Positions 20,897 to 47,612 of a stretch of 64,000 bases of DNA are shown here, piece after piece. The notes under the pieces are model-generated. The model saw nothing but the letters and a program-made list of their open reading frames with translations, did not search any database and was not told the DNA's origin. Within the stretch, counting starts at the first letter, position 1. Every line of letters starts with the position of its first letter. The stretch comes from a virus, in the IMG/VR virus record IMGVR_UViG_3300038443_002312, positions 51,674 to 115,673 of that record. One strand, 5' to 3'. The position numbers and the translations under genes were made by a program.

Positions 20897-20929
20897 ACCG
20901 CCGCCCTCCGGGACCCGCCAACCCGTTGG

Positions 20930-22291
20930 CTACAGCTTCTCTTCCAGGTGCCGCAGGTGTTCGGCGGCCAGCCGCTTGAGGGTCGCGATGGCCGGGTCCC
21001 CGGCCTTGTCCAGGGCCTTGTACTGGTGGTCGCCGACGTGCCCGGTCCCGTGGCACGTCTCGCACCCCTTCGAGAACTTGCCGAGCCGGCCGTGCTCCTG
21101 GGCGCACACCGGGCACTGGGCGTACGGCCGGGCCTCGGCCAGGGTCGCGGCCATCTCGGCGAGCCCCGGGCACGAGTAGACCGTCTCCAACTCGCCGTCC
21201 TGCTCCTTGGGCCGGGCCTTGAGCAGATTCGGGTGCTTGTCGGCCGCCCGGGCCAGGCGATCCCCGCCCGGGGCGGCGGCCAGGGCCGACACCGCCTTCA
21301 TCGCCTGGCGGACCAGCCCGAGGGCCCGGTCGAACTCCTCCCGGGCCTTGAACTGCTCGATCAGCCTGTCCGACCCGAGCGGGTGGTCGGCCTCGTCGGT
21401 CTCGCCCCGGGACAGCTGGATCACCGCCCGGGCCGCGGCCGCGACGGCGATCTTCCCGTCGTCGAGCTTCTTCGCGATCTCCTCGGCCTTGGCCTTCTTC
21501 TCCGGGGACAGTTCGTCGGACTTCGCGGCGGCGAACACGAGCCGGGCCTGGCGGAGGGACTCCGGGTTGGTGTTCAGGGCCTCGGCCACCCGCTCCCGCT
21601 TGGCCTTGCCGCCGACCGGGGCCCGCTGGTACACCCGGTCGAGTTCCTCCTTCCGCTTGACCTTGTCCGACCACTTCGGGTCGACCCGGTCGTCGTTCTC
21701 GGCCATCTCGGCCGCGAGCACCCAGGCCAGCCGGTCGGCCTGCTCCAGGTCGGACGTGTCGACGATCCGGGCCGGGATCGTGTCGAACTTCAACTCGTCC
21801 CGGACCGCGACCGTCCGCCGCCCGCCGGCCGTCAGCCGGTAGGACCCGTCGGCGTCGGCCGGCTCGACCACGATCGCGTGCATCAGCCCGTTCTTGCCGA
21901 TCGACCCGGCCAGGTCCCGGATGCCGGGCATGTCCGACCGGTACCGGTTTTCGAGCCTCACCTTGTCGACCGGGATGTTCACGACCGGGAAGTTGCCCCA
22001 GTGCTTCTTGACCCAGTCGGTCGCCTCGACCCCCTTGACCTCGCCCGGGGCCGCCGCCGGGGCGGCGCCGTCCGCCGGGACGGCCGCCGGGGCCGGGGCC
22101 GCCTCCTCCGGCGTCCTGGCCTTCGGGGCCTTGCCCCCCTTGCCCGGCTTGGCGGCCTTCGCCTTGCCGGCCTTGCCCTTCTTGTCCGGCTTGGCGCCGG
22201 CCTTCCCGCCCTTGCCGCCGCCCTTGAGCGCCCCGAGGGCGTCCCTGACCATCCCCTTCCCGTCCTTCTTCGCCTTCGTCGCCGTGGTCAT
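20930..22291 (-). CDS. ParB/Spo0J-like protein with Lys/Ala-rich N-terminus and C-terminal Zn finger
   Basis: LAGSIGKNGLMHAIVV...LTAGGRR...AENDDR; HTH-like ERVAEALN; CPVC/CETC. Confidence 0.8.
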   Translation of the reverse strand: MTTATKAKKDGKGMVRDALGALKGGGKGGKAGAKPDKKGKAGKAKAAKPGKGGKAPKARTPEEAAPAPAAVPADGAAPAAAPGEVKGVEATDWVKKHWGNFPVVNIPVDKVRLENRYRSDMPGIRDLAGSIGKNGLMHAIVVEPADADGSYRLTAGGRRTVAVRDELKFDTIPARIVDTSDLEQADRLAWVLAAEMAENDDRVDPKWSDKVKRKEELDRVYQRAPVGGKAKRERVAEALNTNPESLRQARLVFAAAKSDELSPEKKAKAEEIAKKLDDGKIAVAAAARAVIQLSRGETDEADHPLGSDRLIEQFKAREEFDRALGLVRQAMKAVSALAAAPGGDRLARAADKHPNLLKARPKEQDGELETVYSCPGLAEMAATLAEARPYAQCPVCAQEHGRLGKFSKGCETCHGTGHVGDHQYKALDKAGDPAIATLKRLAAEHLRHLEEKL

Positions 22292-22333
22292 CGCCGCTGT
22301 CTCCCGCGAACTGGGGCGGCCGCGCCGCCCGGT

Positions 22334-22392
22334 GTTTAAGCTAAAGAAGTGTACGCCCCCGGGGCGCCCGGGGCAAGTGCCAAGATCTTGGC
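22334..22392 (-). promoter_or_regulatory. Promoter TTGCCC-17-TACACT with upstream GCCAAGATCTTGGC and downstream TTTAGCTTAAA operator
   Basis: Intergenic, upstream of the parB-like gene. Confidence 0.6.
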
Positions 22393-22400
22393 ACGCCCCC

Positions 22401-23291
22401 TCAGAAGTTCGTCCACAGGCAGTGTACTAACTTGCGCTTGGCATTACCGCCGGCCGCCGCGTTCGGGACCTGCTTCTCGTGCCGGGTCCAGTGGTGCAGC
22501 CGGGCGACGTCGTCGTACAGGTCCGACCGCAGGCCGGACAGGGCGAAGTGGGCGTTCTTGAGCCCGCCGAGCGTGTCGAGCAGGGCGACGTGCTGGGCCC
22601 GGGTGTACTCGAACCGGTACACGTCCGGGGCGGCCCGGGTCTCGGCCAGCCACGGCGGGTCGAGGTAAAAGACCGCCCCGGGGACGTCGTACTTGAGGCA
22701 CACGGCCGGGGCGTCCCGGTTGAGGACGAGGACCCGGATCAGGCGGGCGCGGACCTCGGGCAGGCGGTCGACCGCCCCGAGCAGGGCCGACACCTGCTCG
22801 TTCATCCCGCCGCGGAGGCGGGACTTGGTCAGCCCGGCGAACGCTTCCCCCGTGTCCGTCCGCCCGGCGAGACACTGCCGGCAGCGGACGAAGTAGCTGA
22901 CGGCGGCGCCGACGTGCGGGGCGGGGAACGTCCCCTTCTCGGCCAGGAGCCGCCGGTACTCGTTGCTCGCGGCGACCGCCCGCTCCCAGGCGGGCTCGGA
23001 GAACGGGGTCAGCTGGGCCCGGCGGAGGAAGTCGAGGAAGACCGCCTCCGGCCCGCCGAGGACGGCCCAGAAGTTGGTCAGTTCGCCGTCCAGGTCGTTG
23101 ACCACCTCGGACACGCCCTCGGGGTCGAGGGCGAAGAGGACCGACAGGCCCCCGGCGTACGGCTCGACGTACGTGGTCCGCGGGACCCGGCCGACGACCC
23201 CGGCGATCCACTGGGCGTTATAGTTCTGACCACCGTGAGTCTTTAAGGTAGTCTTGATTCGCGTGTATTTGGGCTTGGTCTTAGTCGGCAT
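22401..23291 (-). CDS. Dam-like (D12 class) DNA adenine methyltransferase
   Basis: YVEPYAGGLSV, EVVNDLDGELTNFW, FYLDPPW. Confidence 0.88.
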   Translation of the reverse strand: MPTKTKPKYTRIKTTLKTHGGQNYNAQWIAGVVGRVPRTTYVEPYAGGLSVLFALDPEGVSEVVNDLDGELTNFWAVLGGPEAVFLDFLRRAQLTPFSEPAWERAVAASNEYRRLLAEKGTFPAPHVGAAVSYFVRCRQCLAGRTDTGEAFAGLTKSRLRGGMNEQVSALLGAVDRLPEVRARLIRVLVLNRDAPAVCLKYDVPGAVFYLDPPWLAETRAAPDVYRFEYTRAQHVALLDTLGGLKNAHFALSGLRSDLYDDVARLHHWTRHEKQVPNAAAGGNAKRKLVHCLWTNF

Positions 23292-23835
23292 CGGGGGCCT
23301 CGTGGGCGATGCGGATGCGGCAGGCACAGCGGTAGGCCGGGGCCTGGAGGAACACCCACCGGACCCGCGGGTCGCGGCCGGTGTCCTTGACCCCGAGCCA
23401 GGCCGCCACGGTGTCTTTCACGGCCTTGAACGCCCGGGGTAAATTCTCGTCTTCGTCTAACTGCTTGCCGCCGAGCCGGGTCATCGTGACGACGGCCGGG
23501 AGCGGGAACGTCATGACCGGGAGGGCGGCCCGGACGGCCTCCTTGACCGCCGTCTTGCGGCCGATCTTCGCCCGGAGGCCGCCGCCGACCGCGGACCCGG
23601 CGTTCGCCTCGGACACCAGCCGGACGTTGACGTCGACCTCGACCACCAGGCGGGCCAGGGGCGGGCGGGCGGGCGGCGGCGTCTTGCCCCGGCGGGCCGG
23701 GGCGGGGGCCGGAACTCCCCCGCCCGCGGTCGCCGCCGGGCCCGCCGCCGGGGGAGAACCCCCGACGGTGACGGTCGCGGTCCCGCGCTTCAGGGCCGCG
23801 ATCATCTCGTCCACGTTCCCCCGGATGGTCGGCAC
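23281..23835 (-). CDS. RusA-like Holliday junction resolvase
   Basis: SEAN...VTMTRLGGKQLDEDENL..AFKAVKD.VAAWLGVKD. Confidence 0.65.
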   Translation of the reverse strand: MPTIRGNVDEMIAALKRGTATVTVGGSPPAAGPAATAGGGVPAPAPARRGKTPPPARPPLARLVVEVDVNVRLVSEANAGSAVGGGLRAKIGRKTAVKEAVRAALPVMTFPLPAVVTMTRLGGKQLDEDENLPRAFKAVKDTVAAWLGVKDTGRDPRVRWVFLQAPAYRCACRIRIAHEAPDAD

Positions 23836-34163: not shown

Positions 34164-35195
34164 TCAGCGGTCGACGACGACCAGGCACGTCTTGACGCCG
34201 GTCGAGCGGAACGCCCCCTCGAACGCGCCGTCCGGGAGGTCGTACCGCTCCCCGCCGACCTCGTCGAACCACTCGCGGAACTCCGCCGCCTTCCGGTCCG
34301 CCCGGAAGAACGGGCCGGTCGACATGACGGACACGAGTCGTCCGCCGGGCCGCAACAGGGCGTGTGCGTGGCGGACGTGCAGGATGTCCTGGCCACTTTC
34401 AAAGGGGGGATTGGCAAGAACCCGATCGTACAACTCGGCGCGGGCCGTCCAGCTTCTCCCGGTAGCGTCCATTTCAGATGGCAACTGTTCCGGGGCTGGC
34501 AACTGAAGGAAGTCCTCACCGATCACCGTGTGCCCCTTCGCGGTCAGGATCTCCCGCAATTGGTGGTTGATCTCGCACACGTCGACCGCCGCGTCGGGGA
34601 ACGCCCCGCGGACGGCGTCGGCGATGTCCCCCTTGCCGGCCGACGGTTCCAGGACCCGCAACCCGGTCTTCCCGAGGACGTCCGCCAGGTCGATCATCCG
34701 GGCGATGACCGGGGCCGGGGTCGGGAAGAACCCGGGGATCTGGGCGAACCGGACGCGGGCCTCCAGGTCGCGGATCTTCGCGACCCGCGCCGCCTCTTCC
34801 TGCGCCGCCTTGTCCTCCGGCGACTGCCGGCCGTCCAGCCACTCCCGCAGGGCGACGGCCGTCTTGCTCGTGTCGTGGAACTCCCCGGTGTCGCGGAGCG
34901 AGTAGTGCCCGCCGGAATGGTCGACGCGGGTGGCCAGCATGGCCAGGAGTTCCTTCTTGCCGGCGATCCCGCCCAGGGCGGGCGGGCACCGGCCGGCCTC
35001 GTGCGCGTCGGCCAGCTTGAGGAGCGCGCCCCGGACCCGGGCCAGGTGGTCGGCCTCGATCCGGGCCGACGCGGCCTGCATCTGCCGCTTCGGGGTGTTG
35101 TCGAGGCGGGGGTGGCGCTTGTCGGCGATTTGCTTGGCCAGCGTCTCGGCCAGCTTGCGGAACCGGGGGGCAATGCTCGCGGTCTTCGGTGGCAT
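34164..35195 (-). CDS. N6-adenine-type methyltransferase with N-terminal extension
   Basis: GFFPTP, VLEPSAGKGDIAD, ANPPF. Confidence 0.88.
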   Translation of the reverse strand: MPPKTASIAPRFRKLAETLAKQIADKRHPRLDNTPKRQMQAASARIEADHLARVRGALLKLADAHEAGRCPPALGGIAGKKELLAMLATRVDHSGGHYSLRDTGEFHDTSKTAVALREWLDGRQSPEDKAAQEEAARVAKIRDLEARVRFAQIPGFFPTPAPVIARMIDLADVLGKTGLRVLEPSAGKGDIADAVRGAFPDAAVDVCEINHQLREILTAKGHTVIGEDFLQLPAPEQLPSEMDATGRSWTARAELYDRVLANPPFESGQDILHVRHAHALLRPGGRLVSVMSTGPFFRADRKAAEFREWFDEVGGERYDLPDGAFEGAFRSTGVKTCLVVVDR

Positions 35196-35671: not shown

Positions 35672-36163
35672 TCACTCCAGGTCCTCGCGGACGTCGGCCT
35701 CCAGCGTTTCCAGGGCCGCAATCGTGCCGCCGACCTTCTCGGCCACGGCGGCAATTTCGCTCTCCAGGGCCTGGAGGGCCTTGCGGTGCTCGTCGGCCGC
35801 GGTGCTGTCCTCCGGGGCGTCGGGGACCTTGATCGCGGTCAGCCGGTCCCAGGTTTTGTCGAGGTCCTTCGCCAGCCTGTCGGCGCGGGTGGTTACCGCC
35901 TCGAACACGTCGTCCGCGCCGGCCGCCTGGCCGGCGAACTCGTCGGCGATTTCCAGCAGGCGGCCGACGTTGACGGGGCGGCCGAGTGCGTGATTGGTCT
36001 TCTCGTACTCCAGGTCGTTGAGGAGGGCCTGGTGCTCAGGCGACAGGGGCCGCTTGGGTTTGCTCGGCTTTTTGGCCGGCTCCGGCGGGGCCGCGCGGCG
36101 GGGTTTGGCCGGCCGCTTGGCGGTGGCCGGGTTCGGGGCCGCGGGGGCTTTCTTGCGGGGCAT
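35672..36163 (-). CDS. Hypothetical protein
   Basis: MPRKKAPAA..., GAGAGG SD. Confidence 0.6.
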   Translation of the reverse strand: MPRKKAPAAPNPATAKRPAKPRRAAPPEPAKKPSKPKRPLSPEHQALLNDLEYEKTNHALGRPVNVGRLLEIADEFAGQAAGADDVFEAVTTRADRLAKDLDKTWDRLTAIKVPDAPEDSTAADEHRKALQALESEIAAVAEKVGGTIAALETLEADVREDLE

Positions 36164-36225
36164 GTGGGGGCCTCTCGGGGGATCGGGCAGGGGCCGGGCG
36201 GTGCGGGTGGCACCGGGCCGGCCGG

Positions 36226-36855
36226 TCAGGCGGCGGCCGCCGGTTTGCGGCGGCGTTTGCGGGGGCAGAGGGCCAGGGCGGCGAGGTAGGCGCGGACGTG
36301 CTCGGTCGGGTGGCCGTGCTCGTCGAGCCAGTCCGCGGCCGCGCCGATGCCGGCGGCGTCGTCCCAGGTGACGTGGGCCCCGCCGCCGGGGGCCGCGAAG
36401 AACGCGGCCCGGATGGCCGGGGTGAGTTCGGCCATCACCTGGGCGGCGAGCAGGGCCCCGCGGAACACCTCCGACGGGGTCGCCTTGGCCCAGCGGACGG
36501 CCGCCGTGCCGTAGCCGAACGGGTAGGCCGAGCGGTCGCCGCGGAGGCTCCGCGGGGCCGTCATGCGGGCCACGTGGATGAGCACGTACCGGGTGCGGGT
36601 CGCCGGGTCGGTGAGCCACGCGTAGCCGGCGACGGTGCACGTCCGGTGGGGGACCGGGAGGTCGGCCGCGTGGGCGTGCCGGGTCGCGACCCCGTGGCCG
36701 CTCGACGCCATGTGGAACTCCGGGTGCCGCCACTCGGCCGGCAGGACGTCCAGGGCCGCCAGCCGGTTGGCGTGGCCGGCGTTGGCCAGCTCGCACATCC
36801 GGCGGAGTTCCGCGTTGACGGTTTCGAGCGTCGGATTGACCAGTAGTTTCACCAT
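36226..36855 (-). CDS. Hypothetical protein straddling the left border of the GGG-free zone
   Basis: Start motif GGAGGTCCACACATG. Confidence 0.65.
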   Translation of the reverse strand: MVKLLVNPTLETVNAELRRMCELANAGHANRLAALDVLPAEWRHPEFHMASSGHGVATRHAHAADLPVPHRTCTVAGYAWLTDPATRTRYVLIHVARMTAPRSLRGDRSAYPFGYGTAAVRWAKATPSEVFRGALLAAQVMAELTPAIRAAFFAAPGGGAHVTWDDAAGIGAAADWLDEHGHPTEHVRAYLAALALCPRKRRRKPAAAA

Positions 36856-36922
36856 GTGTGGACCTCCGGAACACGTTCAAGACAGGCGACCGGACGGCGG
36901 TAAGGCGGTGCGGTCGGTGCGG

Positions 36923-37165
36923 CTAGGCCGCGCAGTAAGGCTTCCAGTTCCTGACTTGCTCTCCGTTGAACCATCGTCCTTCATCGTGGTACAGATCGAA
37001 TAGCCAACCGGATGACTTGAGAGATTCGGCCTCTCGCTTCGTATCGACCGTGGCCAGAGTTCCGCCGGACTTGTTACGCAGCCTCCATTTCCGGCCGTGT
37101 TTTTGGACGGTCCAACCGGACGGCGGATCGGCGTCATGTTCTTCCGGTGTTGCGTGCAACGCCAT
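36923..37165 (-). CDS. Small early hypothetical protein
   Basis: Start motif; MALHATPEE... Confidence 0.7.
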   Translation of the reverse strand: MALHATPEEHDADPPSGWTVQKHGRKWRLRNKSGGTLATVDTKREAESLKSSGWLFDLYHDEGRWFNGEQVRNWKPYCAA

Positions 37166-37226
37166 GTGTGGACCTCGCGAGGAAGAGAACAGGACCGGCC
37201 GGCGGACTTCTCCGCCGGCCGGCCGA

Positions 37227-37475
37227 TCACACTTGCTCGAATCCGAAGTAGTCGGCGCCGCCACGGCCATCCTGACAGTCCACTACGCTGTACGTCTCAT
37301 CCGGTTCGTCCGAGTTGAGGTACCGGATGATTAACCACCAGCGGCCATGTTCAAATAGCGTGTCGAACCGGCGGTTTCTGGACTGGCGGCCGAACTGCGC
37401 GACGGCGGCGCGTCGGACCGCGGTTTCCGTCTTCCGGTCGTCAACTTCCGACGGTAGCGGCTTGCTGGTCGTCAT
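37227..37475 (-). CDS. Small early hypothetical protein
   Basis: Start motif; FEHGRWW...TYSVVDC. Confidence 0.75.
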   Translation of the reverse strand: MTTSKPLPSEVDDRKTETAVRRAAVAQFGRQSRNRRFDTLFEHGRWWLIIRYLNSDEPDETYSVVDCQDGRGGADYFGFEQV

Positions 37476-37539
37476 GTGCGGACCTCGCGAGGATAGGACC
37501 AGGCGGCCGACCGGCAGTGAGGCACGGCCGGCCGATCGG

Positions 37540-37809
37540 CTAGTAACCGGCCATGCCGGTCGTATCTCGGCCGAGTCGGTTCAAGAGGTGATAGACCGCG
37601 TTCGCGGCATAGTTCGGTTGCATCCAAACGCCTTCCTCCAGGAAGCGTTCGGTAGCGTACAACTCCGGAAGGACGACCGTTTCCGGCTTCTCGCCGATTC
37701 GGATGTACAAGTCATTGCACCAGTCGGCAACCGTCGGCGCCGACCGTTCGTAGTATTCGGCAATCGCGGTTAGCTGCGCTTTGATGGACTCTATCCAGTG
37801 TTGCGCCAT
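37540..37809 (-). CDS. Small early hypothetical protein
   Basis: Start motif. Confidence 0.7.
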   Translation of the reverse strand: MAQHWIESIKAQLTAIAEYYERSAPTVADWCNDLYIRIGEKPETVVLPELYATERFLEEGVWMQPNYAANAVYHLLNRLGRDTTGMAGY

Positions 37810-37875
37810 GTGCGGACCTCGCGAGGATGGAACGAAGTCCGGCCGGTCCGCGGTGGCGGATTCCGGCCGGTGCGG

Positions 37876-38142
37876 TCATTCGTCGGCCTGGTCGTCCGGT
37901 TCGTCCGGTTCCACCAGGTCCGTTTCCGCGGTCTGATCAATCAGGACAAAAGAGGTGTCGTCGTCCGTGGCGCAAATGTGCAACTCGCCGGAACCGGTCC
38001 GCGAGTTGTACCGATAGGTAATCCGGATCGAAACACCTGAAACGGTGGCGCCGTCGGCCGTCCGGAACGGCAGGAAATCCACTACGGCGGAGCTGTCCGG
38101 CTGTTCGACCGTCAGTCGCGGACTCTTGCGGTCGTCTGGCAT
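37876..38142 (-). CDS. Small acidic early protein
   Basis: Start motif; acidic C-terminus. Confidence 0.7.
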   Translation of the reverse strand: MPDDRKSPRLTVEQPDSSAVVDFLPFRTADGATVSGVSIRITYRYNSRTGSGELHICATDDDTSFVLIDQTAETDLVEPDEPDDQADE

Positions 38143-38204
38143 GTGCGGACCTCGTGAGGAAGACAGGCGGACGCACCGGCCGGCGGCCGGACGCGTCCGA
38201 GGAC

Positions 38205-38492
38205 TCAGGCCACGCAATCGGCCGGAATCCGGAACTCGGACCGGAACGGCGCGTCGTCCAGGTCGGCCGACCAGTCAGACCGGCTGACGTCTCCGGCCTG
38301 GTTGCAGTGCGCGACGCGGACGGTCACACCGGCCGCGATCAGGCCGCGACAATACCATTCACAGTCACGAAATGAGCCTTGTACCAACCGCCGCGCGTGG
38401 CGGCCGGACGCCTTGAGGCGGTCGCCTTTGTTCACGGCAAACACGTTGGCGATGCCAACCTGGTAGACCAAATAGGCGGTGTGGACCGGCAT
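38205..38492 (-). CDS. Small early hypothetical protein
   Basis: Start motif; AYLVYQVGIANVF. Confidence 0.75.
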   Translation of the reverse strand: MPVHTAYLVYQVGIANVFAVNKGDRLKASGRHARRLVQGSFRDCEWYCRGLIAAGVTVRVAHCNQAGDVSRSDWSADLDDAPFRSEFRIPADCVA

Positions 38493-38560
38493 GACGGAAC
38501 CTCCGGAACGGAATCGAAAAAGGCGGCCGGCCGGCGGCGAGGCACGGTCGGCCGAGAAGA

Positions 38561-38764
38561 CTACTTGCGATACTGGCCGAGTTCGCACACCACTTGCCTA
38601 GTGTGATCGGTCAGGCTCGCTTTACACGTCGCTTTGGTTCCGGAGACGACCAGGACCGGCTGACCGTCACGCATTTCCATAAGCGCGAACTTGTGCGCGG
38701 CCGGAATGGTGCCGATGTTCTCGGACAGCCACCGCGCCGGAGAATTCGGAGCGCCGACAGGCAT
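38561..38764 (-). CDS. Small early hypothetical protein
   Basis: Start motif. Confidence 0.65.
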   Translation of the reverse strand: MPVGAPNSPARWLSENIGTIPAAHKFALMEMRDGQPVLVVSGTKATCKASLTDHTRQVVCELGQYRK

Positions 38765-38863
38765 AGCGAACACCTCGCGAGGATAGGACCAGTCGACCGG
38801 ACGGCAGTGAAGCCGGTCCGGCACAGGCGGCCGGCCGGCGGTGAAGCCGGTCCGGCCGAGAAC

Positions 38864-39403
38864 TCAGACGGCGGCCGCCATCAGGACCGCACCGGCCGCG
38901 GCACGTGCCGCGAGGTCGGTTTCGCGCCAGGACCACGGCGCCGCCTCCAATTCCGGCCACGGCTCGCGGCGCCACTGACGCGCGGCGCCGCTCCGGCACC
39001 AGGCCGCGTACTTCGCGGCCGGTTTGTGCCGCGCGTGGATTTCCTCGATCACGGCATCGCACAATTTCTTGGCGGCACACTCCGACCAGGCCGGATGCTC
39101 GCACGCCTGGTAGGCGTAACAGCGCGCGAGGTTGTACAGTTCGGCCGCGGTCGGCCGGTAGCCGCGGTCGGTCCACGTGTACGCTTCCAGGTGATCCGGC
39201 GATCCTGGCAGTTCGTCCGGCCGGTCGCGCGGATACCGGTAGGCCACGGACCGGACGTTCTCGGCCGCGAGCATCGCGCCGAGCGAGTCGCGGCCGATGA
39301 CGGCGCGGCGGTCGGCCGGCCGGATGATTCCGTCCGACGTGCCGTCGAGGATGCCGGTCACGAGTAGGTCAATGTGCACGTTGCTGACGACGAACGCACT
39401 CAC
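38864..39403 (-). CDS. Early hypothetical protein
   Basis: MSAFVVSNVHIDLLV...ENVRSV.YRY...CYAYQACEHPAW. Confidence 0.75.
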   Translation of the reverse strand: MSAFVVSNVHIDLLVTGILDGTSDGIIRPADRRAVIGRDSLGAMLAAENVRSVAYRYPRDRPDELPGSPDHLEAYTWTDRGYRPTAAELYNLARCYAYQACEHPAWSECAAKKLCDAVIEEIHARHKPAAKYAAWCRSGAARQWRREPWPELEAAPWSWRETDLAARAAAGAVLMAAAV

Positions 39404-39501
39404 GGCGGAGACCTCGCGGAACACCGGCCGCCGGACTGGCGGCCGGAAGCGGCCGGCGGCACTCCGGAGAGCGCCGCCGGCCCGGTTTTGGGCCGGCCGG
39501 T

Positions 39502-39912
39502 CTAGTTGTCCGAAACGACGTGCGCGAACGCCTCCGCCACGGCCGGCGGCCAACCGGACCACGTGGCGAGCGCCGCGAGGTCGGCCGGCTTACCGGACAG
39601 CGCGGCGCGGTAGGCCGCGTTCACCTCCGGAATCGAGCCGGTGAAGAACCGCGCTTTCTCGGACTGCCACGTGCGGCCGTCGGCGCCGGTATAGCTCGTG
39701 TGCGTCGGCACGTCCGGCGCGTCGAATACGACCACGGCGGCCGCGTGGCCGGACCTCTCCGGCCACGCGGCGATCGACCGGACGGCGGTGCCGTCGTCGG
39801 TCGGAACCACCAGGATCGTGGCGCCGTACCGCGCGTCCGGATTCTTCTGGCCGTAGATTTCTTTGACGGCGGCGCCGGTCGCCGTGGTCTTCTCGCGGAT
39901 GATCACTTTCAT
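39502..39912 (-). CDS. Early hypothetical protein
   Basis: 136 aa ORF. Confidence 0.7.
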   Translation of the reverse strand: MKVIIREKTTATGAAVKEIYGQKNPDARYGATILVVPTDDGTAVRSIAAWPERSGHAAAVVVFDAPDVPTHTSYTGADGRTWQSEKARFFTGSIPEVNAAYRAALSGKPADLAALATWSGWPPAVAEAFAHVVSDN

Positions 39913-40036
39913 CGGACGGACTCACCAGGAAGGAAAGGAACACCGGAACTGGAGGACTCCGCCACGTGGCGGAAGGCCGGACGGCCGGCCGGTAGGCCGG
40001 ACCGCCGGAAGTGCCGCCGGTCCGCTGGCGCCGTAG

Positions 40037-40252
40037 CTACGGCGCCGTTGGACCGGCCGGCCGATCGGACCTGGAGCCGTCGCCGGACTGGCTCTTTCTA
40101 GACCGATTGCGAGAGAAGAACGCGTTGATTTGCGCGAGCGACCGGCCGCCGTCGCTCTCCGGATGGTAGACGCCGGAACCGAAGCAGGCCGGACAGTCCG
40201 GATCGCCACAACACGGATACACCTGGTCGGCCGGTAGCGTCTGGTCGTCCAC
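40037..40252 (-). CDS. Small Cys-containing early protein
   Basis: Start motif with GTG; CCGDPDCPACFG. Confidence 0.55.
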   Translation of the reverse strand: MDDQTLPADQVYPCCGDPDCPACFGSGVYHPESDGGRSLAQINAFFSRNRSRKSQSGDGSRSDRPAGPTAP

Positions 40253-40291
40253 GTGCGGACCTCGCGAGGAAGGAAGGACCGGCCGGCGCGA

Positions 40292-40558
40292 CTACTTAGC
40301 GCCGCGCGTCCGGTCCAGGAGCTTCAAGGCCGTGTCGATCATGCGCGCCGTCGGCATCGCGCGGTATCGCGCCTGATTGTCCGCGCCTAGCTTGTCGTGG
40401 ACACCGACCACCAGGCCGGCCGTTGTCAGGTCCACCGTGATACCGTCGATTTTCGCGTAACTCTTGCGGTCCACAACCGACCGGAACGCGGCCACGCGCT
40501 CCTCTCCGGTCGCGCACGTATGGACCGGCGTTCCGCCGGTCCGCTTGACGGTTGACAT
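40292..40558 (-). CDS. Small early hypothetical protein
   Basis: Start motif; YAKIDGITVDLTTA. Confidence 0.7.
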   Translation of the reverse strand: MSTVKRTGGTPVHTCATGEERVAAFRSVVDRKSYAKIDGITVDLTTAGLVVGVHDKLGADNQARYRAMPTARMIDTALKLLDRTRGAK

Positions 40559-40625
40559 GTGTTCACCTCGCGAGGAAGGAAGCCAGGACCGGCCGGCGGA
40601 CTTCTCCGCCGGCCGGCCGGTCCGG

Positions 40626-42002
40626 TCAGTTCCGGACGGCCGCCGTGGCCAGCTGGTACGCGGTCTGTTTGATGTCGTCTCCGGCGCCGGAGATGACGCT
40701 TTCGAACCGCGCCGACCGCTTGGCTTCCTCGGACCTCGCACGGCTCTTGCCGCCGAGTTTGCCGTGGTCCACCGATTCGGTTACCGCGTTGAACGCGGAC
40801 CAGGCCGAACCGCGGATGCCGCCGACGCCGTTGGTGTCGGAGTGGTAGCGGTCGAGCACGTCCTCTAGCAGTTCCTTCCGGTGCTTGGCTTCCGCCTCCA
40901 ACCGCTTCTTTTCGTACTCCTGCTCCGCACGCGTCACCTTCAGAGTTCGCGCCACCGCGTCAATGCCGGTTTCGAGCTGCGCCGCCGTGATGTCGCACAC
41001 CGAATCGAGTAGGCCGTTGAAGTAGGCCAGCGGTTCCATCGGCGTTCGCGCCATCACTTCGGCCGACTCGCGGAACTCCTCGAACTCCTCCACCGCGAGG
41101 CCGAGCGCTTCGGCGGCCGCCTTGCGCTTCGCCTGGAGGTTGCCGGTGTGGCGGATCGTAATGCCTTTTGACCGGTCATCCTTGTCGGCCATCCGCAGCG
41201 TGTTCGCGCAGACCACGCGGTGCGCCGTCGGAAAGCACTTCGCAGCCTCCGTGCCGTCGTGCGCGTTCGTGAACAGCGCGAACGGCTTGATTTCGTCTCC
41301 GGCCGTGACACGGAACGCCTGCTTTGGCAGGTGTACCAGCATCCACACTTTCTTGCCGCCGTGGATCGCGCCGGCGGTTTCGTACCTGGCGCCGAACCGC
41401 TCTAACAGGCCGTCAAGGAACTTGAACGCGTCCTCGTTCTGGAACGGTTGGTACCGGCCGCCGACCGAACCGAGATAGGCGCCGGTGTCGTCGCGGCTGA
41501 TCGCGAACGTGTCCGGCGCCTGGATGACCTCGCCGCGCGCGTTGGTGAACGTCATGTCTCGCTTGCTCACCTTCCAGTTCAGGCCGGCGAGCGTGATTGC
41601 GTCGGTGGACGTTACCGCCGACTCGACGTTCACGCCGAGACCGTGCCACGGCGCCGCACCGGCCACCATCACCGATATCCGGCCACCGGACGTGTCCAGG
41701 CCGGCGCGGCGGATGGCGGCCGACATGATGACGGCGCGGTCATTCTCCGGTAGCGCCATCACCAGCGGATGGATTCGCGCCTGATAGACCGCGTCGGACT
41801 CGCCGGACTTCCGGCGCAGTTCCTGGTACGCGCCGCACCGGATCATTTCGCCAGGATCGGACAGACCGGCGACGTAGTTGATGCTGGTGATGTCGCGGTT
41901 GGCCGTGATGATCCGCGGCCCGGAGGCGGCCGGACCGGACGCCGGTTCGGACGTGCGGCCGGCGACGGTCGCGGCGAGCGCGGCGTTAATGAGATCGGAC
42001 AT
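40626..42002 (-). CDS. DUF932/TIGR03299-like phage/plasmid protein
   Basis: PWHGLG, AGLNWKV, YQPFQNEDAF, YETAGAIHGGKKVW, NAHDG, RVVCANTL, IRHTG, AWSAFNAVTE. Confidence 0.88.
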   Translation of the reverse strand: MSDLINAALAATVAGRTSEPASGPAASGPRIITANRDITSINYVAGLSDPGEMIRCGAYQELRRKSGESDAVYQARIHPLVMALPENDRAVIMSAAIRRAGLDTSGGRISVMVAGAAPWHGLGVNVESAVTSTDAITLAGLNWKVSKRDMTFTNARGEVIQAPDTFAISRDDTGAYLGSVGGRYQPFQNEDAFKFLDGLLERFGARYETAGAIHGGKKVWMLVHLPKQAFRVTAGDEIKPFALFTNAHDGTEAAKCFPTAHRVVCANTLRMADKDDRSKGITIRHTGNLQAKRKAAAEALGLAVEEFEEFRESAEVMARTPMEPLAYFNGLLDSVCDITAAQLETGIDAVARTLKVTRAEQEYEKKRLEAEAKHRKELLEDVLDRYHSDTNGVGGIRGSAWSAFNAVTESVDHGKLGGKSRARSEEAKRSARFESVISGAGDDIKQTAYQLATAAVRN

Positions 42003-42166
42003 TGTGGAACCTCCGGATAAGGACCGGCCGGCCGGTCCGCGGCACCACGCCACGGTTACCGGCCGGCCGAGTGAGGCGACCGGCGATTAGGCCGGTCGCG
42101 ACCTCGCGAGGAAGGATACAGGCGACGGACCGACCGGCCGGCCGGCCGGCCGAGTCCGCCGAGTGG

Positions 42167-42430
42167 TCAGACCGCGACCTCGCGCAACCGAGCGTACAGG
42201 TTGCGGAGTTGTCGGCGGTATTGCGTCTCGTTCGGCCGGACGTCCGGCGAGCGGACGGACCGGAAGCCGCCGTACTCCATCGTCCAATCGGCGAACGCGC
42301 GGACCATGCCGTCCGCGTGCGCCAGGTACACTTTCGGCCGGTCTTTCAGGTCCTGGACCAGGTGTTGCATTTCGTCAAGGTCTTGGTTCGCGTAGGTGTG
42401 GACACGCGTAACCGGAATCGCGGTGAGCAT
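42167..42430 (-). CDS. Small early hypothetical protein
   Basis: Start motif. Confidence 0.65.
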   Translation of the reverse strand: MLTAIPVTRVHTYANQDLDEMQHLVQDLKDRPKVYLAHADGMVRAFADWTMEYGGFRSVRSPDVRPNETQYRRQLRNLYARLREVAV

Positions 42431-42509
42431 CGGTAGACCTCCGGAGGAGCGAGCAAGGCGGCCGGTCCGCCGGACTGGCGGAGTCGGCCGAGTGCCAACC
42501 GGTTGGCAG

Positions 42510-42719
42510 TTACCGCACGTGCTCCAGAGTGCAGAGCACCGGCGGAGTTCCGAGGACCACGGCGGCCGATATGCTCTGACACTCGATCCATTCGTCCGAG
42601 TGCCACGGCTGCACTCGGATCGTTCCGTCCGAGTGCCGGAGGACCGGCCGGCCGTTGTCCAGTGTGTGCACGATTTCCATGACGTTCACCTCAGTATCCG
42701 AGGACTCGAAACCGGACAT
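42510..42719 (-). CDS. Small early hypothetical protein
   Basis: Start motif; alternative start at 42680. Confidence 0.55.
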   Translation of the reverse strand: MSGFESSDTEVNVMEIVHTLDNGRPVLRHSDGTIRVQPWHSDEWIECQSISAAVVLGTPPVLCTLEHVR

Positions 42720-42841
42720 AGGCTAGGACCTCCGGAAGCGTCACATAGCGGAACACTAGCACGGCCGAATCCTCCGGCGGACCGGCCGCACCAGGCGACC
42801 GCGAGCGGACCGGCCGGCCGGTAAGCCGAACCGGACCAGGT

Positions 42842-43108
42842 TCACACCTCTTTCGCTTCCGACCGGCCGACGTTCTTCCAGGATTGCACGTCTAGAATGC
42901 AGTCGCGCGACCGTTCCGACGGCGGATAGATGCGGAAGAGGCGGCCGGAATACGGATGCTCAAACATGCCGTCCTTCACCGTGGCCACGAAATCGTCGCG
43001 GTGGAAGTAGGCCGAACCGGTCACCTGGTTGTTGGCGATTTCGAACGTGACCGTGATATCGCGCCGCTCCGGCGCCGTGATACCGTCGTCGAACCGAACT
43101 ACCAGCAT
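42842..43108 (-). CDS. Small early hypothetical protein
   Basis: Start motif. Confidence 0.7.
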   Translation of the reverse strand: MLVVRFDDGITAPERRDITVTFEIANNQVTGSAYFHRDDFVATVKDGMFEHPYSGRLFRIYPPSERSRDCILDVQSWKNVGRSEAKEV

Positions 43109-43169
43109 GGCGGAACCTCGCGAGGAAGGAAGGCGGCCGGCCGGCGGTGAGGCACGGTCGGCCGATTGG

Positions 43170-43364
43170 TCAGTTAACCGCCTTATAGCAGTTGCACGGA
43201 AACTGATGAGCGATCCGGTTTAACCGGTCGTACTCCGCCTCTCCGACCAGGCGGACCAGGCCGGCGGCCGAAATCGTGTCAGACGTGCCGTCGGAGAACT
43301 TCACCGAAAAACCGGACCAGGACCAGGACCAGAGGATATGCGTAACCGTCGGAGTGGTCGGCAT
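43170..43364 (-). CDS. Small early hypothetical protein
   Basis: Start motif. Confidence 0.65.
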   Translation of the reverse strand: MPTTPTVTHILWSWSWSGFSVKFSDGTSDTISAAGLVRLVGEAEYDRLNRIAHQFPCNCYKAVN

Positions 43365-43429
43365 GGCGTACACCTCGCGAGGAAGGAACGAAAGCGGACC
43401 GGCCGGCGGCGAAGCCGGACCGGACCAGG

Positions 43430-43609
43430 TTAATCAATCGGAACGACCTCGGTTTCCGCTCTCCAGTGTTTCCGGTAGAACGCCGATAGCTCGTTTGCTT
43501 TGTCGGCATCGAACCGGACTGCCGTTTCGCTGTTGCCGATCCGCTCGCCTCTCTCGTGAATGAACCACGTCTGTCCTTCAGCAGTCACTTTTACGATGAA
43601 CTGTCGCAT
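43430..43609 (-). CDS. 59 aa protein absent from the ORF track (first gene of the leftward operon)
   Basis: Manual translation MRQFIVKVTAEGQTWFIHERGERIGNSETAVRFDADKANELSAFYRKHWRAETEVVPID. Confidence 0.55.
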   Translation of the reverse strand: MRQFIVKVTAEGQTWFIHERGERIGNSETAVRFDADKANELSAFYRKHWRAETEVVPID

Positions 43610-43645
43610 GAAACGGACTCTTTAGAGTGAAGGAATACAGGAAAG

Positions 43646-43711
43646 GCATCCGTTCCGGAATCGAACCGGACCGGCGGCCGAAACCGCCGGAGCGCCAACC
43701 GCTCGGATTGC
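43646..43711 (-). ncRNA. tRNA-like cloverleaf with UUCG tetraloop in place of the anticodon loop
   Basis: T-arm TCCGG-TTCGATT-CCGGA, closing stem GCAATCCG/CGGATGC, D-like arm AGCG/CGCT. Confidence 0.55.
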
Positions 43712-44070
43712 TCGCAAGCGAGCGTGCCAGACAGGCGACTCACCGGCCGCCTGTCTTGTGTTGTGGACGTCGTATCCGGCCTGTGGCGCCGGACAGCGGA
43801 CTAGAGGTTACACACCTGATTTGCCACCGCACGTGATTCCGCAGACTCTTTCCGGACCTGTGCGAGCGTCCGGCCAACCGACCGGTTTCGAGCAACGCGG
43901 CACACCTCTACCGGCTCTTGTGAGCCGTCTTAGTGTGTTCCACAACCGGCGGACCTGTGCGAGTGGTTTCGAGATGTCAAAGATCGGCGTGCCGACTGGC
44001 GGTTACCGCGTGCGGCCTACTCGGCCGGTCCTGTCATTCCGACCAGGCCGTTCGCCGCACCGGTGTAGAG

Positions 44071-44130
44071 GAGTTTATACTAAACTCTCTCTCTCGTGTC
44101 AACCGGTCCTGCCAATTTTTTGTCAGGCCG
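44071..44130 (-). promoter_or_regulatory. Leftward sigma-70 promoter TTGACA-17-TATAAA with A-tract palindrome upstream and operator over the -10
   Basis: Minus strand reads TGACAAAAAATTGGCAGGACCGGTTGACA...GAGTTTAGTATAAACTC. Confidence 0.8.
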
Positions 44131-44449
44131 GTTTGTCGCGGCCGGCCGGTTTGCGGACGGCCGGCCGCGGCGAGAGAAGACAAAGCACGGCGCGTGCCGT
44201 TCGGCCGAATCTTGCCAATAAATTGTCGGACCGGCCGGTTTCGCGTTATACGCTCGTCTGGCGGCCGACCGGCCGCGGCCGCAGCTGACCACGGTCCGCG
44301 GCCGACCGGACGCCACGCGTGCGTTAAACGCGTCCGCCGCCGGTTCACCGCCGGCGCGAATTCCGGCGGCCGAAACCGTGGCCGCCGGACGACCAGGACC
44401 GTGTACTAAATCTGTACAGAGTGACAGCCGGACGACCAGGCGGCCGGCC

Positions 44450-44508
44450 GGTTGCCAAAAAATTGTCAGGACCGGTTGATTTCCGGACGGCACCAGTTTA
44501 GACTAAAC
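44450..44508 (+). promoter_or_regulatory. Rightward sigma-70 promoter TTGATT-17-TAGACT with operator GTTTAGACTAAAC
   Basis: TGCCAAAAAATTGTCAGGACCGGTTGATT mirrors the leftward promoter. Confidence 0.75.
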
Positions 44509-44556
44509 AACCGGCCGGCGGACGGTCCGCCGGTGCATGTAGGTGAGGACTCGCAA

Positions 44557-44796
44557 ATGGCCAGATGGTTCCGCTGCGAGAGTCCGGAGGAGCTTGCGAA
44601 GCGCCGCAAGGCGCTCCGCCGGTTCCGGACGCAAAAGGAAGTGGACCGCGAGGTTGACCGGCTGATCGCGCTCGAATTGAGACACGAGGACATCCGCGAC
44701 AGCCTTCCGCATGAGTCGCCGGAATACTGGAAGGCGCACGATACCGCCGTCAAGTACCGCGAGCGTGCGCGGCTACTCATGCCACCAGGAAGCTAA
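44557..44796 (+). CDS. Small early hypothetical protein
   Basis: GAGG SD; MARWFRCES... Confidence 0.65.
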   Translation: MARWFRCESPEELAKRRKALRRFRTQKEVDREVDRLIALELRHEDIRDSLPHESPEYWKAHDTAVKYRERARLLMPPGS

Positions 44797-44833
44797 TCGG
44801 CCGAAACCACGGAAACCGGGCCGGAGACACGAA

Positions 44834-45250
44834 ATGAACCTGCCGGACAAAATCACCGAACGCGTCCGAGCGTGGCCGCACTGGTCACGCGCCGAGCGCC
44901 GCCGGTTGGATGAGATTACCGACGAAATCCTGGGCCACTGCGCGAACGGCACCGGTAACCGGTTCGTCCGCGAGTGGTGTAGCCGCGTGCTCGCGGACCT
45001 CTTCCGCGCGGCCGGCGGACCGGAGATTCCGCCGGCCGACCGGATTCCGACGCGCGAGAATGAGGAAGTCTCGTTCGCCGCGCACGGCCGGACGTTCGTG
45101 GTCAAGAAGTTGTACGGCGCCGTCTGGTTCCTGAAAGCGACGGACCAGACGCGCGGCCGGTTCGGCGACAAACAGCAAATTCGCGAGGATATCGAGCATG
45201 CAACCGAATTCGGAGTCCTGCCGAGTGCCACCGGCGCCGGCATCTACTGA
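44834..45250 (+). CDS. Early hypothetical protein
   Basis: MNLPDKITERVRAW... Confidence 0.65.
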   Translation: MNLPDKITERVRAWPHWSRAERRRLDEITDEILGHCANGTGNRFVREWCSRVLADLFRAAGGPEIPPADRIPTRENEEVSFAAHGRTFVVKKLYGAVWFLKATDQTRGRFGDKQQIREDIEHATEFGVLPSATGAGIY

Positions 45251-45635
45251 CGAACCGGTCGTTCTCACTCGCGGCGACGGCCGGACGCTTCCGGCCGTGG
45301 TCCTGGTGGCCGAGAACGGCAAACCGGATGTGTACCTGGTCGCGGCGCTGCCGTGCGACCAGGCCGGACACCAGTTTTTCGAGCTGATCGGCTACCGGCC
45401 GAAAGATGCCGGTTATGAGTCCGGAGTCCGCCGGTATCACACGATGGTAGCGGAACCGACGGCGGACCGACCGGCGGCCGGCTTGTGCGACTGCGCGTGC
45501 GGCACGTACGGCCACCGCGCCGGCTCCGACCGGACACCGACCGGTAAACCGTGCCGCCACGTGCGATTTCTTTCCGCTCTCTGGTCGCGAGGTGAGTTGC
45601 CGTGTCTACCGCAACCGAAACGATCCGCTCGGTAG
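45198..45635 (+). CDS. SWIM-type Zn-finger protein
   Basis: CDC..GTY...PCRHV. Confidence 0.65.
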   Translation: MQPNSESCRVPPAPASTDEPVVLTRGDGRTLPAVVLVAENGKPDVYLVAALPCDQAGHQFFELIGYRPKDAGYESGVRRYHTMVAEPTADRPAAGLCDCACGTYGHRAGSDRTPTGKPCRHVRFLSALWSRGELPCLPQPKRSAR

Positions 45636-45934
45636 TCGGATTCTGGAAGCTTTATCCGGAACACGGCTTGCCGGCCGAAATCGAGGTCCAAGACTGGAGT
45701 CCGGTTCCGGAACCGCTCCGCGGCCGGCGCGACTCTCGTATCGTCGTCGTCATCACGTTCGGCGTCTACGATCCGCCGTCGAACACGTGGCAACCGGCGT
45801 TCCTGTGCGAGTGTGACGACCGGACGGAAGCCAACCGCGTAGCCGGTCAGTGGACCAGGTTTGTCGATCGTCTCTGGCAAGAATTGCCGTCGCGCCACGA
45901 CATCGCGGCGCGGAAAACCGTCCGTCTCACCTAA
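45602..45934 (+). CDS. Early hypothetical protein
   Basis: GCGAGGT SD upstream of GTG. Confidence 0.6.
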   Translation: MSTATETIRSVVGFWKLYPEHGLPAEIEVQDWSPVPEPLRGRRDSRIVVVITFGVYDPPSNTWQPAFLCECDDRTEANRVAGQWTRFVDRLWQELPSRHDIAARKTVRLT

Positions 45935-45948
45935 CCGCGAGGTCCGCT

Positions 45949-46410
45949 ATGAACGCCAAACCGCCAGTCCTGCCGATCGCCGTGGCCGCGCCGCCGGACG
46001 TCCGGCCGGCCGCCGGAGACACGGTTCTATCCGTGCGCCAGCCGTTCGCCTGGCTCATCGTCCACGGCTTCAAGCCGTATGAGAACCGATCCTGGAATAC
46101 CAACTTCCGCGGCCGGTTGTGGATTCACGCGTCCACCAGGCGGCCGGCTATCTCCGACGATGAGGTTCGCGAGGAATTGAGCATGACGTACGGTCTTCCG
46201 CCGGACCTCGCGGCCGCCTACCGGCCGGTGTACGGCGCCATCATCGGCGCCGCGACCGTGGCGGAAGTGTTCTTCGGCCACAGCGTGCCGCGGCGCGATC
46301 TCGGTAACGTCCACGTGGACGAATCCGATTACCACTGGCTTCTCGAAAATCCGGCCGTCCTCCGGACGCCGGTGGTGATGACCGGCCGCGTCGGACTGTT
46401 CAAGGTGTGA
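45949..46410 (+). CDS. ASCH domain protein
   Basis: LSVRQPFAWLIVHGFKPYENRSW...RGRLWIHAS; GAIIG. Confidence 0.9.
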   Translation: MNAKPPVLPIAVAAPPDVRPAAGDTVLSVRQPFAWLIVHGFKPYENRSWNTNFRGRLWIHASTRRPAISDDEVREELSMTYGLPPDLAAAYRPVYGAIIGAATVAEVFFGHSVPRRDLGNVHVDESDYHWLLENPAVLRTPVVMTGRVGLFKV

Positions 46411-46481
46411 GACGGTCCGGCCGGCGGTCGGTTACCTGAGAGCGGACCGGCCGCCGGTCGGCCGGTCCGCGAGGTCCGCAG

Positions 46482-46805
46482 ATGACACGGTCTGAGGCGA
46501 ACCAGGTGCTCTCACGAGCGATGCAGCCGGCATCCTACCGCGTGCGGAAGGACGGCCGGTTCTGGTTCGTGACTGAGGCCGAAACGCTCGGCTTGTGGCC
46601 GAGCACGTTCAAGACGCGCAAGGCCGCTCTCGCGGCGGCCGACCGGAGCGGCGCCGCCGGTGGCGCCGGCCGCCCCGGTCCTTGCATTCACGGAACACTA
46701 TCATGGGGAAGCCGACCGGGATCGCTTGTGAGTCCGACGAGTGCGACGGTCGGGACGTCCCGACGGAATGCGGCCGGCCCGAAGAGTACCGTTGACCCCG
46801 CGTGA
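46482..46805 (+). CDS. Hypothetical protein straddling the right border of the GGG-free zone
   Basis: Start motif CCGCGAGGTCCGCAGATG. Confidence 0.6.
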   Translation: MTRSEANQVLSRAMQPASYRVRKDGRFWFVTEAETLGLWPSTFKTRKAALAAADRSGAAGGAGRPGPCIHGTLSWGSRPGSLVSPTSATVGTSRRNAAGPKSTVDPA

Positions 46806-46857
46806 CTGGCCGCCGACCGCAGTGGACGGCGGCTCACCCCGAACCGGAGACCTGACC

Positions 46858-47097
46858 ATGACGACGACCCAGACGACCTACTGGCTGATCGAGTCGACCG
46901 GTGACACCCGAATGGTCTGGAAGGCGAAGTCCCCGACGCTGGCCGGGGCGAAGAAAGAGGCCGGTGCCCGCCACGCAGTCTGCACCGGCGAGGGGCTGGG
47001 CGACGGCCAGACGATGCCGCGAGGGCAGCTGAAAATGGCCCTGGAATCGGGCCGCATCCGGATCGCAGACGGATCGAGTGCTGACGGCCTCTGCTAA
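46858..47097 (+). CDS. Hypothetical protein
   Basis: GGAG SD; MTTTQTTYWLIES... Confidence 0.6.
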   Translation: MTTTQTTYWLIESTGDTRMVWKAKSPTLAGAKKEAGARHAVCTGEGLGDGQTMPRGQLKMALESGRIRIADGSSADGLC

Positions 47098-47123
47098 CCG
47101 TACACCATCCGCCGTGGCCACCA

Positions 47124-47276
47124 GCCGGGAAGCACAACCGGAGCAAGCTGGACGAGTACGTGAAGGTCGAGCAGGAGGTGGGGAGCCGGTTCCGGGTCGA
47201 ACTCTCCTTGCTGGAGGTCCGGGACGCCCTGGAACGGGGGGACGAGCCGGGCCCGGTCCAGTCGTGGGAAATGTGA
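47124..47276 (+). pseudogene. Possible C-terminal remnant of a PAPS-reductase-family gene
   Basis: Start-less frame AGKHNRSKLDEYVKVEQEVGSRFRVELSLLEVRDALERG. Confidence 0.35.
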
Positions 47277-47318
47277 CCGACCGAACCGGCCGGCCCGGTT
47301 TTCCTCCGGAACCCTGAC

Positions 47319-47612
47319 ATGGCCAAGTACCGCCGCCCCGCACGCCCGACGTACGACCTGGTCCTGGCCGCCGGCCGGGTCGAGGTCTGGTCCAACCTGG
47401 AGCCCGACCCCGTCGTCCTGACCGACCAGGAGGCCGGGACCCGGATCATCCACTACCCGGCGGTCCTGGCCGCGTTGCAGGGCTTGATCGACCCGGCCGG
47501 GAAGCCGGCCGACCCCGCCGGTCCGGTCGCGGCCGCCCAAAAAGCCCTCGCGGACGCCCTGGTGGCGTCCGCCCCGGTCAAGAAGCCCAGCAAGAAGAGG
47601 CCGAGGAAATGA
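47319..47612 (+). CDS. Hypothetical protein
   Basis: 97 aa; stop overlaps the next start. Confidence 0.6.
   Translation: MAKYRRPARPTYDLVLAAGRVEVWSNLEPDPVVLTDQEAGTRIIHYPAVLAALQGLIDPAGKPADPAGPVAAAQKALADALVASAPVKKPSKKRPRK

Follow-up and report, generated by a model that had tools for sequence, protein, structure and literature searches.

Why should one block of a phage genome contain almost no runs of three G or three C, when the rest of that genome is crowded with them, and why should the few that survive in the block share a single sequence context? The question is raised by a window of 64,000 nucleotides, the whole stretch of DNA analysed here, which corresponds to bases 51,674-115,673 of one 115,673-bp IMG/VR virus record (IMGVR_UViG_3300038443_002312). 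All GGG and CCC trinucleotides were listed over window positions 36000-47500, and the block in question, referred to below as the zone, is delimited as follows.

36754-46672, both strands: zone nearly free of GGG and CCC; 9,919 bp, 65.8% GC, five sites

The five sites are CCC at 39481, GGG at 39490, CCC at 41919, GGG at 44818, and GGG at 44932. On the basis of the zone's own dinucleotides, 488 sites would be expected, and on the basis of the density in the remainder of the record, approximately 873; expressed as density, the zone carries 0.5 per kb versus 88 per kb in the remainder. The longest GGG/CCC-free gaps in the zone measure 2899, 2728, 2429, and 1741 bp, whereas elsewhere in the 115,673-bp record, no such gap exceeds 95 bp. 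CCC/GGG is the sole trinucleotide with an abnormal observed-to-expected ratio (O/E) in the zone (0.01 versus 0.81 elsewhere). The ban is thus local and approximately 175-fold, and it applies equally to both strands, to coding and non-coding DNA, to genes of both orientations, and to the 947-bp non-coding centre of the zone. An earlier note on this DNA had placed the purged stretch at 36753-44936; the interval is indeed purged, but its right-hand end was set too early, as the stretch continues to 46672.

The ban comes at a cost to the proteins that the zone encodes. The ban is accommodated mainly through synonymous choice: glycine is written with 116 GGC, 35 GGT, 26 GGA, and 1 GGG codon (GGG being the commonest glycine codon in the remainder of the record), and proline with 132 CCG, 9 CCA, 5 CCT, and 0 CCC codons. 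Where synonymous choice is not available, the amino acid sequence gives way. Tryptophan is followed by glycine, alanine, valine, aspartate, or glutamate in 0 of 54 cases in the zone versus 21.3 expected (P = 1.7e-12; the share in the remaining proteome is 38%), because TGG followed by a codon starting with G unavoidably makes GGG. Zone proteins likewise contain zero Met-Gly and only 4 Gly-Pro pairs, versus approximately 10 expected from composition or approximately 25 from the density of the remainder, and glycine and proline are each about one-third rarer.

The sites that escaped the purge, together with one at the left edge, are these:

36753-36757, plus strand: edge survivor GGGCC, inside the gene 36226-36855 of the minus strand
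39476-39498, minus strand: hairpin holding the survivor pair CCC 39481 and GGG 39490; intergenic, past the stop of gene 39502-39912
41917-41921, minus strand: survivor GGGCC; Gly28 GGG then CCG (Gly-Pro), in the unconserved N terminus of a DUF932 protein
44818-44822, plus strand: survivor GGGCC; intergenic, beginning 16 nt before the ATG at 44834
44932-44936, plus strand: survivor GGGCC; spans codons CTG, GGC, and CAC of gene 44834-45250, where a synonymous change could avoid it

All five zone sites and the edge site at 36753 read GGGCC or GGCCC, which bears out the earlier observation that every exception overlaps GGCC, and full enumeration of 36754-46672 confirmed that no GGG or CCC in another context had been missed. 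The neighbours just beyond the zone edges, GGG at 36722 on the left and the first site on the right (46673), are not GGGCC. Survivors fit the consensus HGGGCCR, and protein sequence forces none of them; the one at Gly28-Pro29 could have been avoided via GGA or GGT, and the other three Gly-Pro pairs are in fact written with GGT/GGA. The hairpin at 39476-39498 is stable (-23.5 kcal/mol, z -2.25) and has the two survivors as its loop-proximal pairs; as 39481 and 39490 pair mutually in this one structure, the survivors represent four independent events.

How surprising a shared context is depends on how common GGGCC would otherwise be. Among GGG/CCC in the remainder of the record, its share is 17%-23%; among the 4,086 single substitutions that would create GGG or CCC in the zone, it is 13.5% (14% for transitions alone); and recoding the zone proteins according to codon usage in the remainder gives 11.5%. 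The probability that four of four events fall in the GGGCC context specifically is 3e-4, and that they share any one dinucleotide, with post-hoc choice allowed, 3.2e-3 on the 3′ side and 3.3e-3 on the 5′ side; for five events sharing one dinucleotide context, it is approximately 6e-4. GGGCG is absent among the survivors even though it accounts for 19% of the mutational null (versus 13% for GGGCC) and is about as common as GGGCC in the rest of the genome. Moreover, single substitutions in the zone could produce approximately 3,500 runs outside the GGGCC context, and the zone contains none of them, which suggests a large cost per site, as for a cleavage site. The GGGCC rule is probably real, with four events in one genome behind it.

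Survival is not the same as exemption, however. The earlier note had proposed that the avoided word is GGG not followed by CC, and this fails, since GGGCC/GGCCC is itself strongly depleted: the zone holds 5, versus 42 expected from a dinucleotide model or approximately 146 from the density of the remainder. In coding DNA, 2 GGGCC were observed versus 43 ± 5 after recoding, and 0 GGG/CCC in other contexts versus 329 ± 15. Depletion is thus approximately 21- to 29-fold for GGGCC and more than 300- to 700-fold for other contexts. GGGCC is the least-purged context and at most a weaker target, which is suggestive, on thin support, as to what the reader of the word prefers; should the rule hold in replicates, it would be the first clue to the specificity of a reader of G-runs.

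The same note had remarked on the abundance of CCGG and GGCCGGCC with methylation in mind. The raw counts are high, but they do not amount to evidence of a methylation target, as the excess follows mostly from the ban itself and from intergenic hairpins. Measured against an order-2 Markov expectation, GGCC occurs 196 times in the zone versus 158.5 ± 11.5 and CCGG 301 times versus 252 ± 15 (approximately 1.2-fold); the longer words GGCCGGCC (22 versus 7.7) and CCGGCCGG (34 versus 12.5) are each in excess by approximately 2.8-fold. With GGG and CCC forbidden in GC-rich DNA, words of the CCGG/GGCC type must rise, and the intergenic quarter (25%) of the zone holds 43 of the 56 copies of these 8-mers, as hairpin stems.

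GGG/CCC is not the only word that sets the zone apart. GCGC has an O/E of 0.42 over the record and of 0.28-0.63 per 5-kb bin outside the zone, compared with 1.04 within it, and in 1.5-kb bins, the value changes over the intervals 35.3k-36.8k and 45.8k-47.3k. CTAG behaves similarly but less markedly (0.46 versus 0.83 in the zone). GGG/CCC is thus depleted within the zone and GCGC outside it, with the same edges for both words. This contrast fits either compartment-specific sets of DNA readers or a history peculiar to the block, such as that of a mobile module passed between phages; a reader of GGG/CCC is still needed under either picture. Escape from GCGC avoidance, together with the shared edges, would set the zone apart as a compartment of its own, in space or in time, e.g., an internal segment that is exposed first. 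The features of classical Type II avoidance were not found for GGG/CCC, which is a 3-bp non-palindrome and is depleted in the zone alone.

The explanation that we favour, tentatively and with somewhat less than even confidence, is purifying selection against the double-stranded DNA word GGG/CCC as read by a nuclease-like factor, for which GGGCC would be a poorer, though not a null, target. The zone would then be a divergent block of small accessory genes kept free of GGG/CCC by strong selection on the DNA itself. Its reader would most likely be a protein acting on double-stranded DNA, to which even a single site would already be costly, and a nuclease would be the simplest candidate, whether it belongs to the host or is the enzyme with which the phage itself degrades host DNA. 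Such a reader would meet the zone while the remaining genome is absent or protected, as with the first-step-transfer (FST) DNA of phage T5, and exposure of this kind could be temporal or positional. The survivors would all be GGGCC because that context is a poorer target, probably through intrinsic weakness rather than through masking. Like a T5-type FST region, the zone is nearly free of a word that is common in the rest of the genome; the gene content (DUF932 and genes without family matches) fits an early or accessory region.

Several points weigh against this explanation. To our knowledge, no reader of a 3-bp word has been reported, none was found in the record, and neither Endonuclease_NS nor HNH had a match there. 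The survivors amount to four independent events in one genome. The zone lies internally in the contig, and the record has no end repeats; nor is the depth of the zone doubled, values in metagenome run X7 being 3.3-6.7 for the flank and 4.3-6.1 for the zone (exact-match pieces at low depth). No sigma-70 promoter was found in the zone by a strict consensus scan, so that its description as an early region follows from layout alone. Finally, a zone without GCGC avoidance is odd for what ought to be the most exposed DNA, and the block could have a different ancestry.

A collapsed terminal repeat of the T5 type was considered and rejected on the grounds of undoubled depth and missing end repeats, which are weak evidence at low depth and with the record approximately 71% complete. 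Hypermutation by a CCC-directed deaminase is unlikely, as no reading frame is broken and most replacements are synonymous choices that preserve G/C (CCG, GGC), not C-to-T changes.

Other explanations account for the survivors differently. Chance combined with mutational supply is possible, if unlikely: the survivors would be slightly deleterious mutations that have yet to be purged, arising where GGACC, GGTCC, and words of the CCGGCCGG type are one step away. GGACC is indeed enriched in the zone (5.95 versus 3.59 per kb), which also contains 34 copies of CCGGCCGG; three survivors read CCGGGCC, a single step from those words; both coding survivors are synonymous-type sites; and the independent events number only four. 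The mutational null nevertheless already includes these routes and still gives GGGCC only the 13.5% share (14% for transitions) reported above. The agreement of four events has a probability of 3e-4 for GGGCC, or of approximately 3e-3 if any dinucleotide on a given side may be the shared one. In addition, the compensated CCC/GGG pair of the hairpin needs two changes, which points to long-term tolerance. That pair, which closes a stable intergenic hairpin, might also suggest that each surviving site is kept for a local job (hairpin closing, a start-codon signal) that outweighs its cost, and the survivor at 44818 lies close before a start codon; indeed, all 6 of 6 sites are within approximately 100 nt of one. 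We consider this very improbable: approximately 12 further hairpins in the zone do without GGG/CCC, shuffled sequences fold as well as the one around 44818 does (z 0.04), the two coding sites are of the synonymous type and fall in unconserved or ordinary codons, and with genes this short, the 100 nt next to start codons cover about half of the zone.

A reader that is blind to GGGCC owing to modification of GGCC, whether by HaeIII-type 5-methylcytosine (m5C), N4-methylcytosine (m4C), or GpsGCC phosphorothioate, would also leave survivors that all overlap GGCC and would make GGGCC less depleted than other contexts. The phage does carry proteins of a suitable general type, with a PAPS-reductase fold (the fold of DndC), a ParB_N domain, and a cpYpsA SLOG domain, as well as three methylases; Dnd phosphorothioation modifies a mere fraction of its sites, in keeping with the partial masking that would have to be assumed. 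Partial it must be, as full masking predicts no depletion of GGGCC, which is 21- to 29-fold depleted. The record, however, contains neither a C5-cytosine methylase (PF00145) nor a tRNA-guanine transglycosylase (TGT), at approximately 71% completeness; its methylase motifs are adenine-type; the PAPS_reduct-domain protein at 12034-12774 gives weak CysD-type matches and matches no DndC model; no dndA-E gene set, of which DndC is the hallmark, was found in the record, and the PAPS-reductase-fold, SLOG, and ParB_N proteins all failed to match Dnd models. With GGCC and CCGG a mere 1.2-fold above trinucleotide expectation and the 8-mers placed in hairpins, masking appears improbable. Avoidance of DNA structure, i.e., prevention of G-quadruplexes (G4), i-motifs, R-loops, or slippage in heavily transcribed early DNA, with the survivor context incidental, receives hardly any credence from us. 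In its favour, the genome has 74% GC, the zone is a dense transcription unit, and the survivors are isolated and unable to form a quadruplex. Yet canonical G4 motifs outside the zone number approximately 1 per kb, and thus approximately 10 motifs, not approximately 870 G/C runs, would need breaking; motifs of the GG type are undepleted, at 143 versus 145 ± 10; and A and T runs of up to 5 occur, with an O/E of 0.93 for AAA. Quadruplex avoidance should deplete clusters and spare isolated runs, but isolated runs are banned here even at amino acid cost. These counts, taken with strand symmetry and protein cost, support the claim of the earlier note that the motif is one recognised by an enzyme rather than one shunned for slippage or quadruplexes. 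A composite version, in which a GGG/CCC reader of a kind not previously described is weakened at GGCC overlaps by intrinsic specificity or partial modification and the zone forms a separate compartment, we regard as distinctly unlikely when taken as a whole.

The modification-type genes named above are placed as follows, with the putative adenine methylases on one line:

16125-16964, 22401-23327, and 34164-35195: three methylases, with DPPY, DPPW, and NPPF motifs among them, adenine-type
12034-23327, minus strand: DNA-modification-type cluster comprising PAPS-reductase-fold, cpYpsA SLOG (PF12694, 1.6e-38), N6_N4 methylase, helicase, ParB_N, and Dam-like methylase proteins

The NPPF methylase at 34164-35195 adjoins the zone.

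A nuclease-like reader of GGG/CCC would not be without partial precedents. Frequent-cutting nucleases are familiar from chloroviruses, such as CviJI (RGCY) and Nt.CviPII (CCD), and EndoG prefers (dG)n.(dC)n tracts; some of these enzymes with 2- to 3-bp or G-tract targets are used by viruses to destroy host DNA while sparing their own. Chloroviruses, however, protect their own DNA by methylation and not through a site-free block, whereas a site-free block is what is seen here, and the record yielded no member of an enzyme family of this kind.

The closest parallel is with T5 and BF23, in which restriction, clustered regularly interspaced short palindromic repeats (CRISPR), and Ssp take effect only where the ~9.7-kb FST region contains their sites, and in which the escape of the phage's own DNA from the pre-early destruction of host DNA remains unexplained (PMC10644984). 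As in those phages, a ~10-kb block of small early genes would sit within a genome of ~115-120 kb and is free of sites, and FST coexists with destruction of host DNA (PMC10644984). The T5 block, unlike the zone, is a terminal direct repeat; the zone is internal and without doubled depth, although the latter is weak evidence. The words avoided by T5 are also ordinary 4- to 8-bp host sites, while the word here is 3 bp long and its ban is near-absolute and changes proteins. No sequence relation of the record to T5 was seen. In Autographiviridae, a motif in the first-injected leading region alone decides restriction sensitivity, and that region varies and carries many anti-defence genes (PMC12455610); the zone differs in that the motif there is a few-copy bipartite Type I site at the genome end and entry is driven by transcription. 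Site-free first-exposed DNA is already a known phage tactic.

With restriction-site avoidance and the depletion of CRISPR protospacer-adjacent motifs (PAMs), the zone shares the removal of short words read on either strand. Those forms of avoidance are usually genome-wide and mild (compare the GCGC O/E of 0.42 here) and concern 4- to 6-bp palindromes or PAMs, unlike the local, ~175-fold loss of a non-palindromic 3-mer. In plasmids, a survey showed that palindromes are not consistently depleted from leading regions (PMC13478746). No GGG/CCC-free phage region was found by literature search, and the literature searched contains no description of a 3-bp word banned almost absolutely and with reshaping of proteins.

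Related zones were sought through the genes of the record. No GGG/CCC-free zone was found among 74 loci based on DUF932 (IMG/VR supplied 2 and then 60 by profile, JGI metagenomes 10, and GTDB genomes 4) or among 80 loci based on the large terminase, TerL. The largest-gap ratio in these DUF932 and TerL loci was at most 3.8, versus approximately 25 here. Scans with the major capsid protein (MCP) and with the leader motif described below returned nothing related. A 24-kb contig carries a DUF932 variant that differs by 1 residue.

The zone is organised around its non-coding centre, with divergent gene sets on either side and a boundary gene at each edge:

36226-36855, minus strand: left boundary gene; zone-type leader; first 102 nt GGG/CCC-free, then GGG-rich, with a GC content at third codon positions (GC3) of 0.96
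36923-43609, minus strand: leftward array of ~16 genes without family matches, most of them small, together with the DUF932/TIGR03299 gene 40626-42002
43610-44556: non-coding centre between the divergent gene sets; 947 bp, no GGG/CCC
44099-44125, ~44214-44232, and 44453-44479: three TGCCAA-N5-6-TTGTC(A/G)G repeats in the non-coding centre
44557-46805, plus strand: five or six rightward genes, including the ASCH-like gene 45850-46410
46482-46805, plus strand: last rightward gene, with leader CGCGAGGTCCGCAGATG; the zone ends within it at 46672

In the leftward array, the 'phage/plasmid-like' DUF932/TIGR03299 protein is the sole recognisable product, and apart from it and the weak ASCH match, no zone protein was matched in Pfam, PHROGs, NCBIfam, or the ESM Atlas. 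A leader of the form TCCTCGCGAGGT-N5-8-ATG heads the zone genes in ten exact or near-exact copies between 37172 and 43383, and the leftward genes are separated by strong GC-rich CCGG/GGCC hairpins. Two of the TGCCAA repeats form a 27-nt inverted pair (93% complementary), and the repeats, placed between the divergent gene sets, resemble operators or iterons. Terminator-like sites in the zone were at chance level, and no Rfam family was detected there.

Both zone edges fall inside open reading frames (ORFs) that open with a zone-type leader. The right boundary gene, 46482-46805 on the plus strand, has no GGG in its first 191 nt but 9 GGG/CCC in the following 133 nt. Its tail (residues 76-107) matches weakly a repeat in an unrelated 886-aa protein, and the ORF may be a read-through chimera; no homologues of the boundary genes were found. 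The next gene to the left, 35672-36163, lies outside the zone and has the same leader layout (36161-36176, minus strand), written with a C-run (GAGGCCCCCACATG in place of GAGGTCCGCACATG). The style of the gene array thus continues where the ban stops, and the limit would seem to be positional, or to be a recombination joint, rather than to follow from what the genes do.

The record is classed as linear, with a completeness of ~71% according to CheckV; its GC content is 74%, and nearly all of its genes are on the minus strand. That it is a tailed phage is borne out by its large terminase, portal, major head protein, and head protease. Cultured phages are very distant, the best portal match having 22%-26% identity. 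The closest named TerL homologue comes from a Gemmataceae metagenome-assembled genome (MAG), and the closest genomic DUF932 homologues come from Pirellulaceae, Phycisphaeraceae, and Planctomycetaceae MAGs and from one Ohtaekwangia MAG; together, these homologues give a weak hint of a planctomycete (Planctomycetota) host.

The zone sequence is present in ten soil or rhizosphere metagenome runs, and in the four that were examined, the zone pieces were identical, of low depth, and with zero variants. A sequencing or assembly artefact was rejected, as several runs carry the identical sequence. Among the pieces listed from the runs, none bridged a zone edge, and among the runs listed, no RNA dataset carried the zone.

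Three further features of the record lie outside the zone. The minimum of the cumulative GC skew falls at window position ~31,836 (record 83,509), approximately 5 kb to the left of the zone and with no change in gene orientation, and may be a replication origin or terminus. Near the head genes and outside the window, a 935-aa protein (record 515-3322, minus strand) has family-9 glycosyltransferase and TylF-type O-methyltransferase domains fused, and it may act in glycosylation of the virion or of DNA. Lastly, a phage sigma-70-family protein with regions 2 and 4 is encoded at window 125-1408 on the minus strand, which implies that later genes would be transcribed by the host core polymerase with the phage sigma factor.

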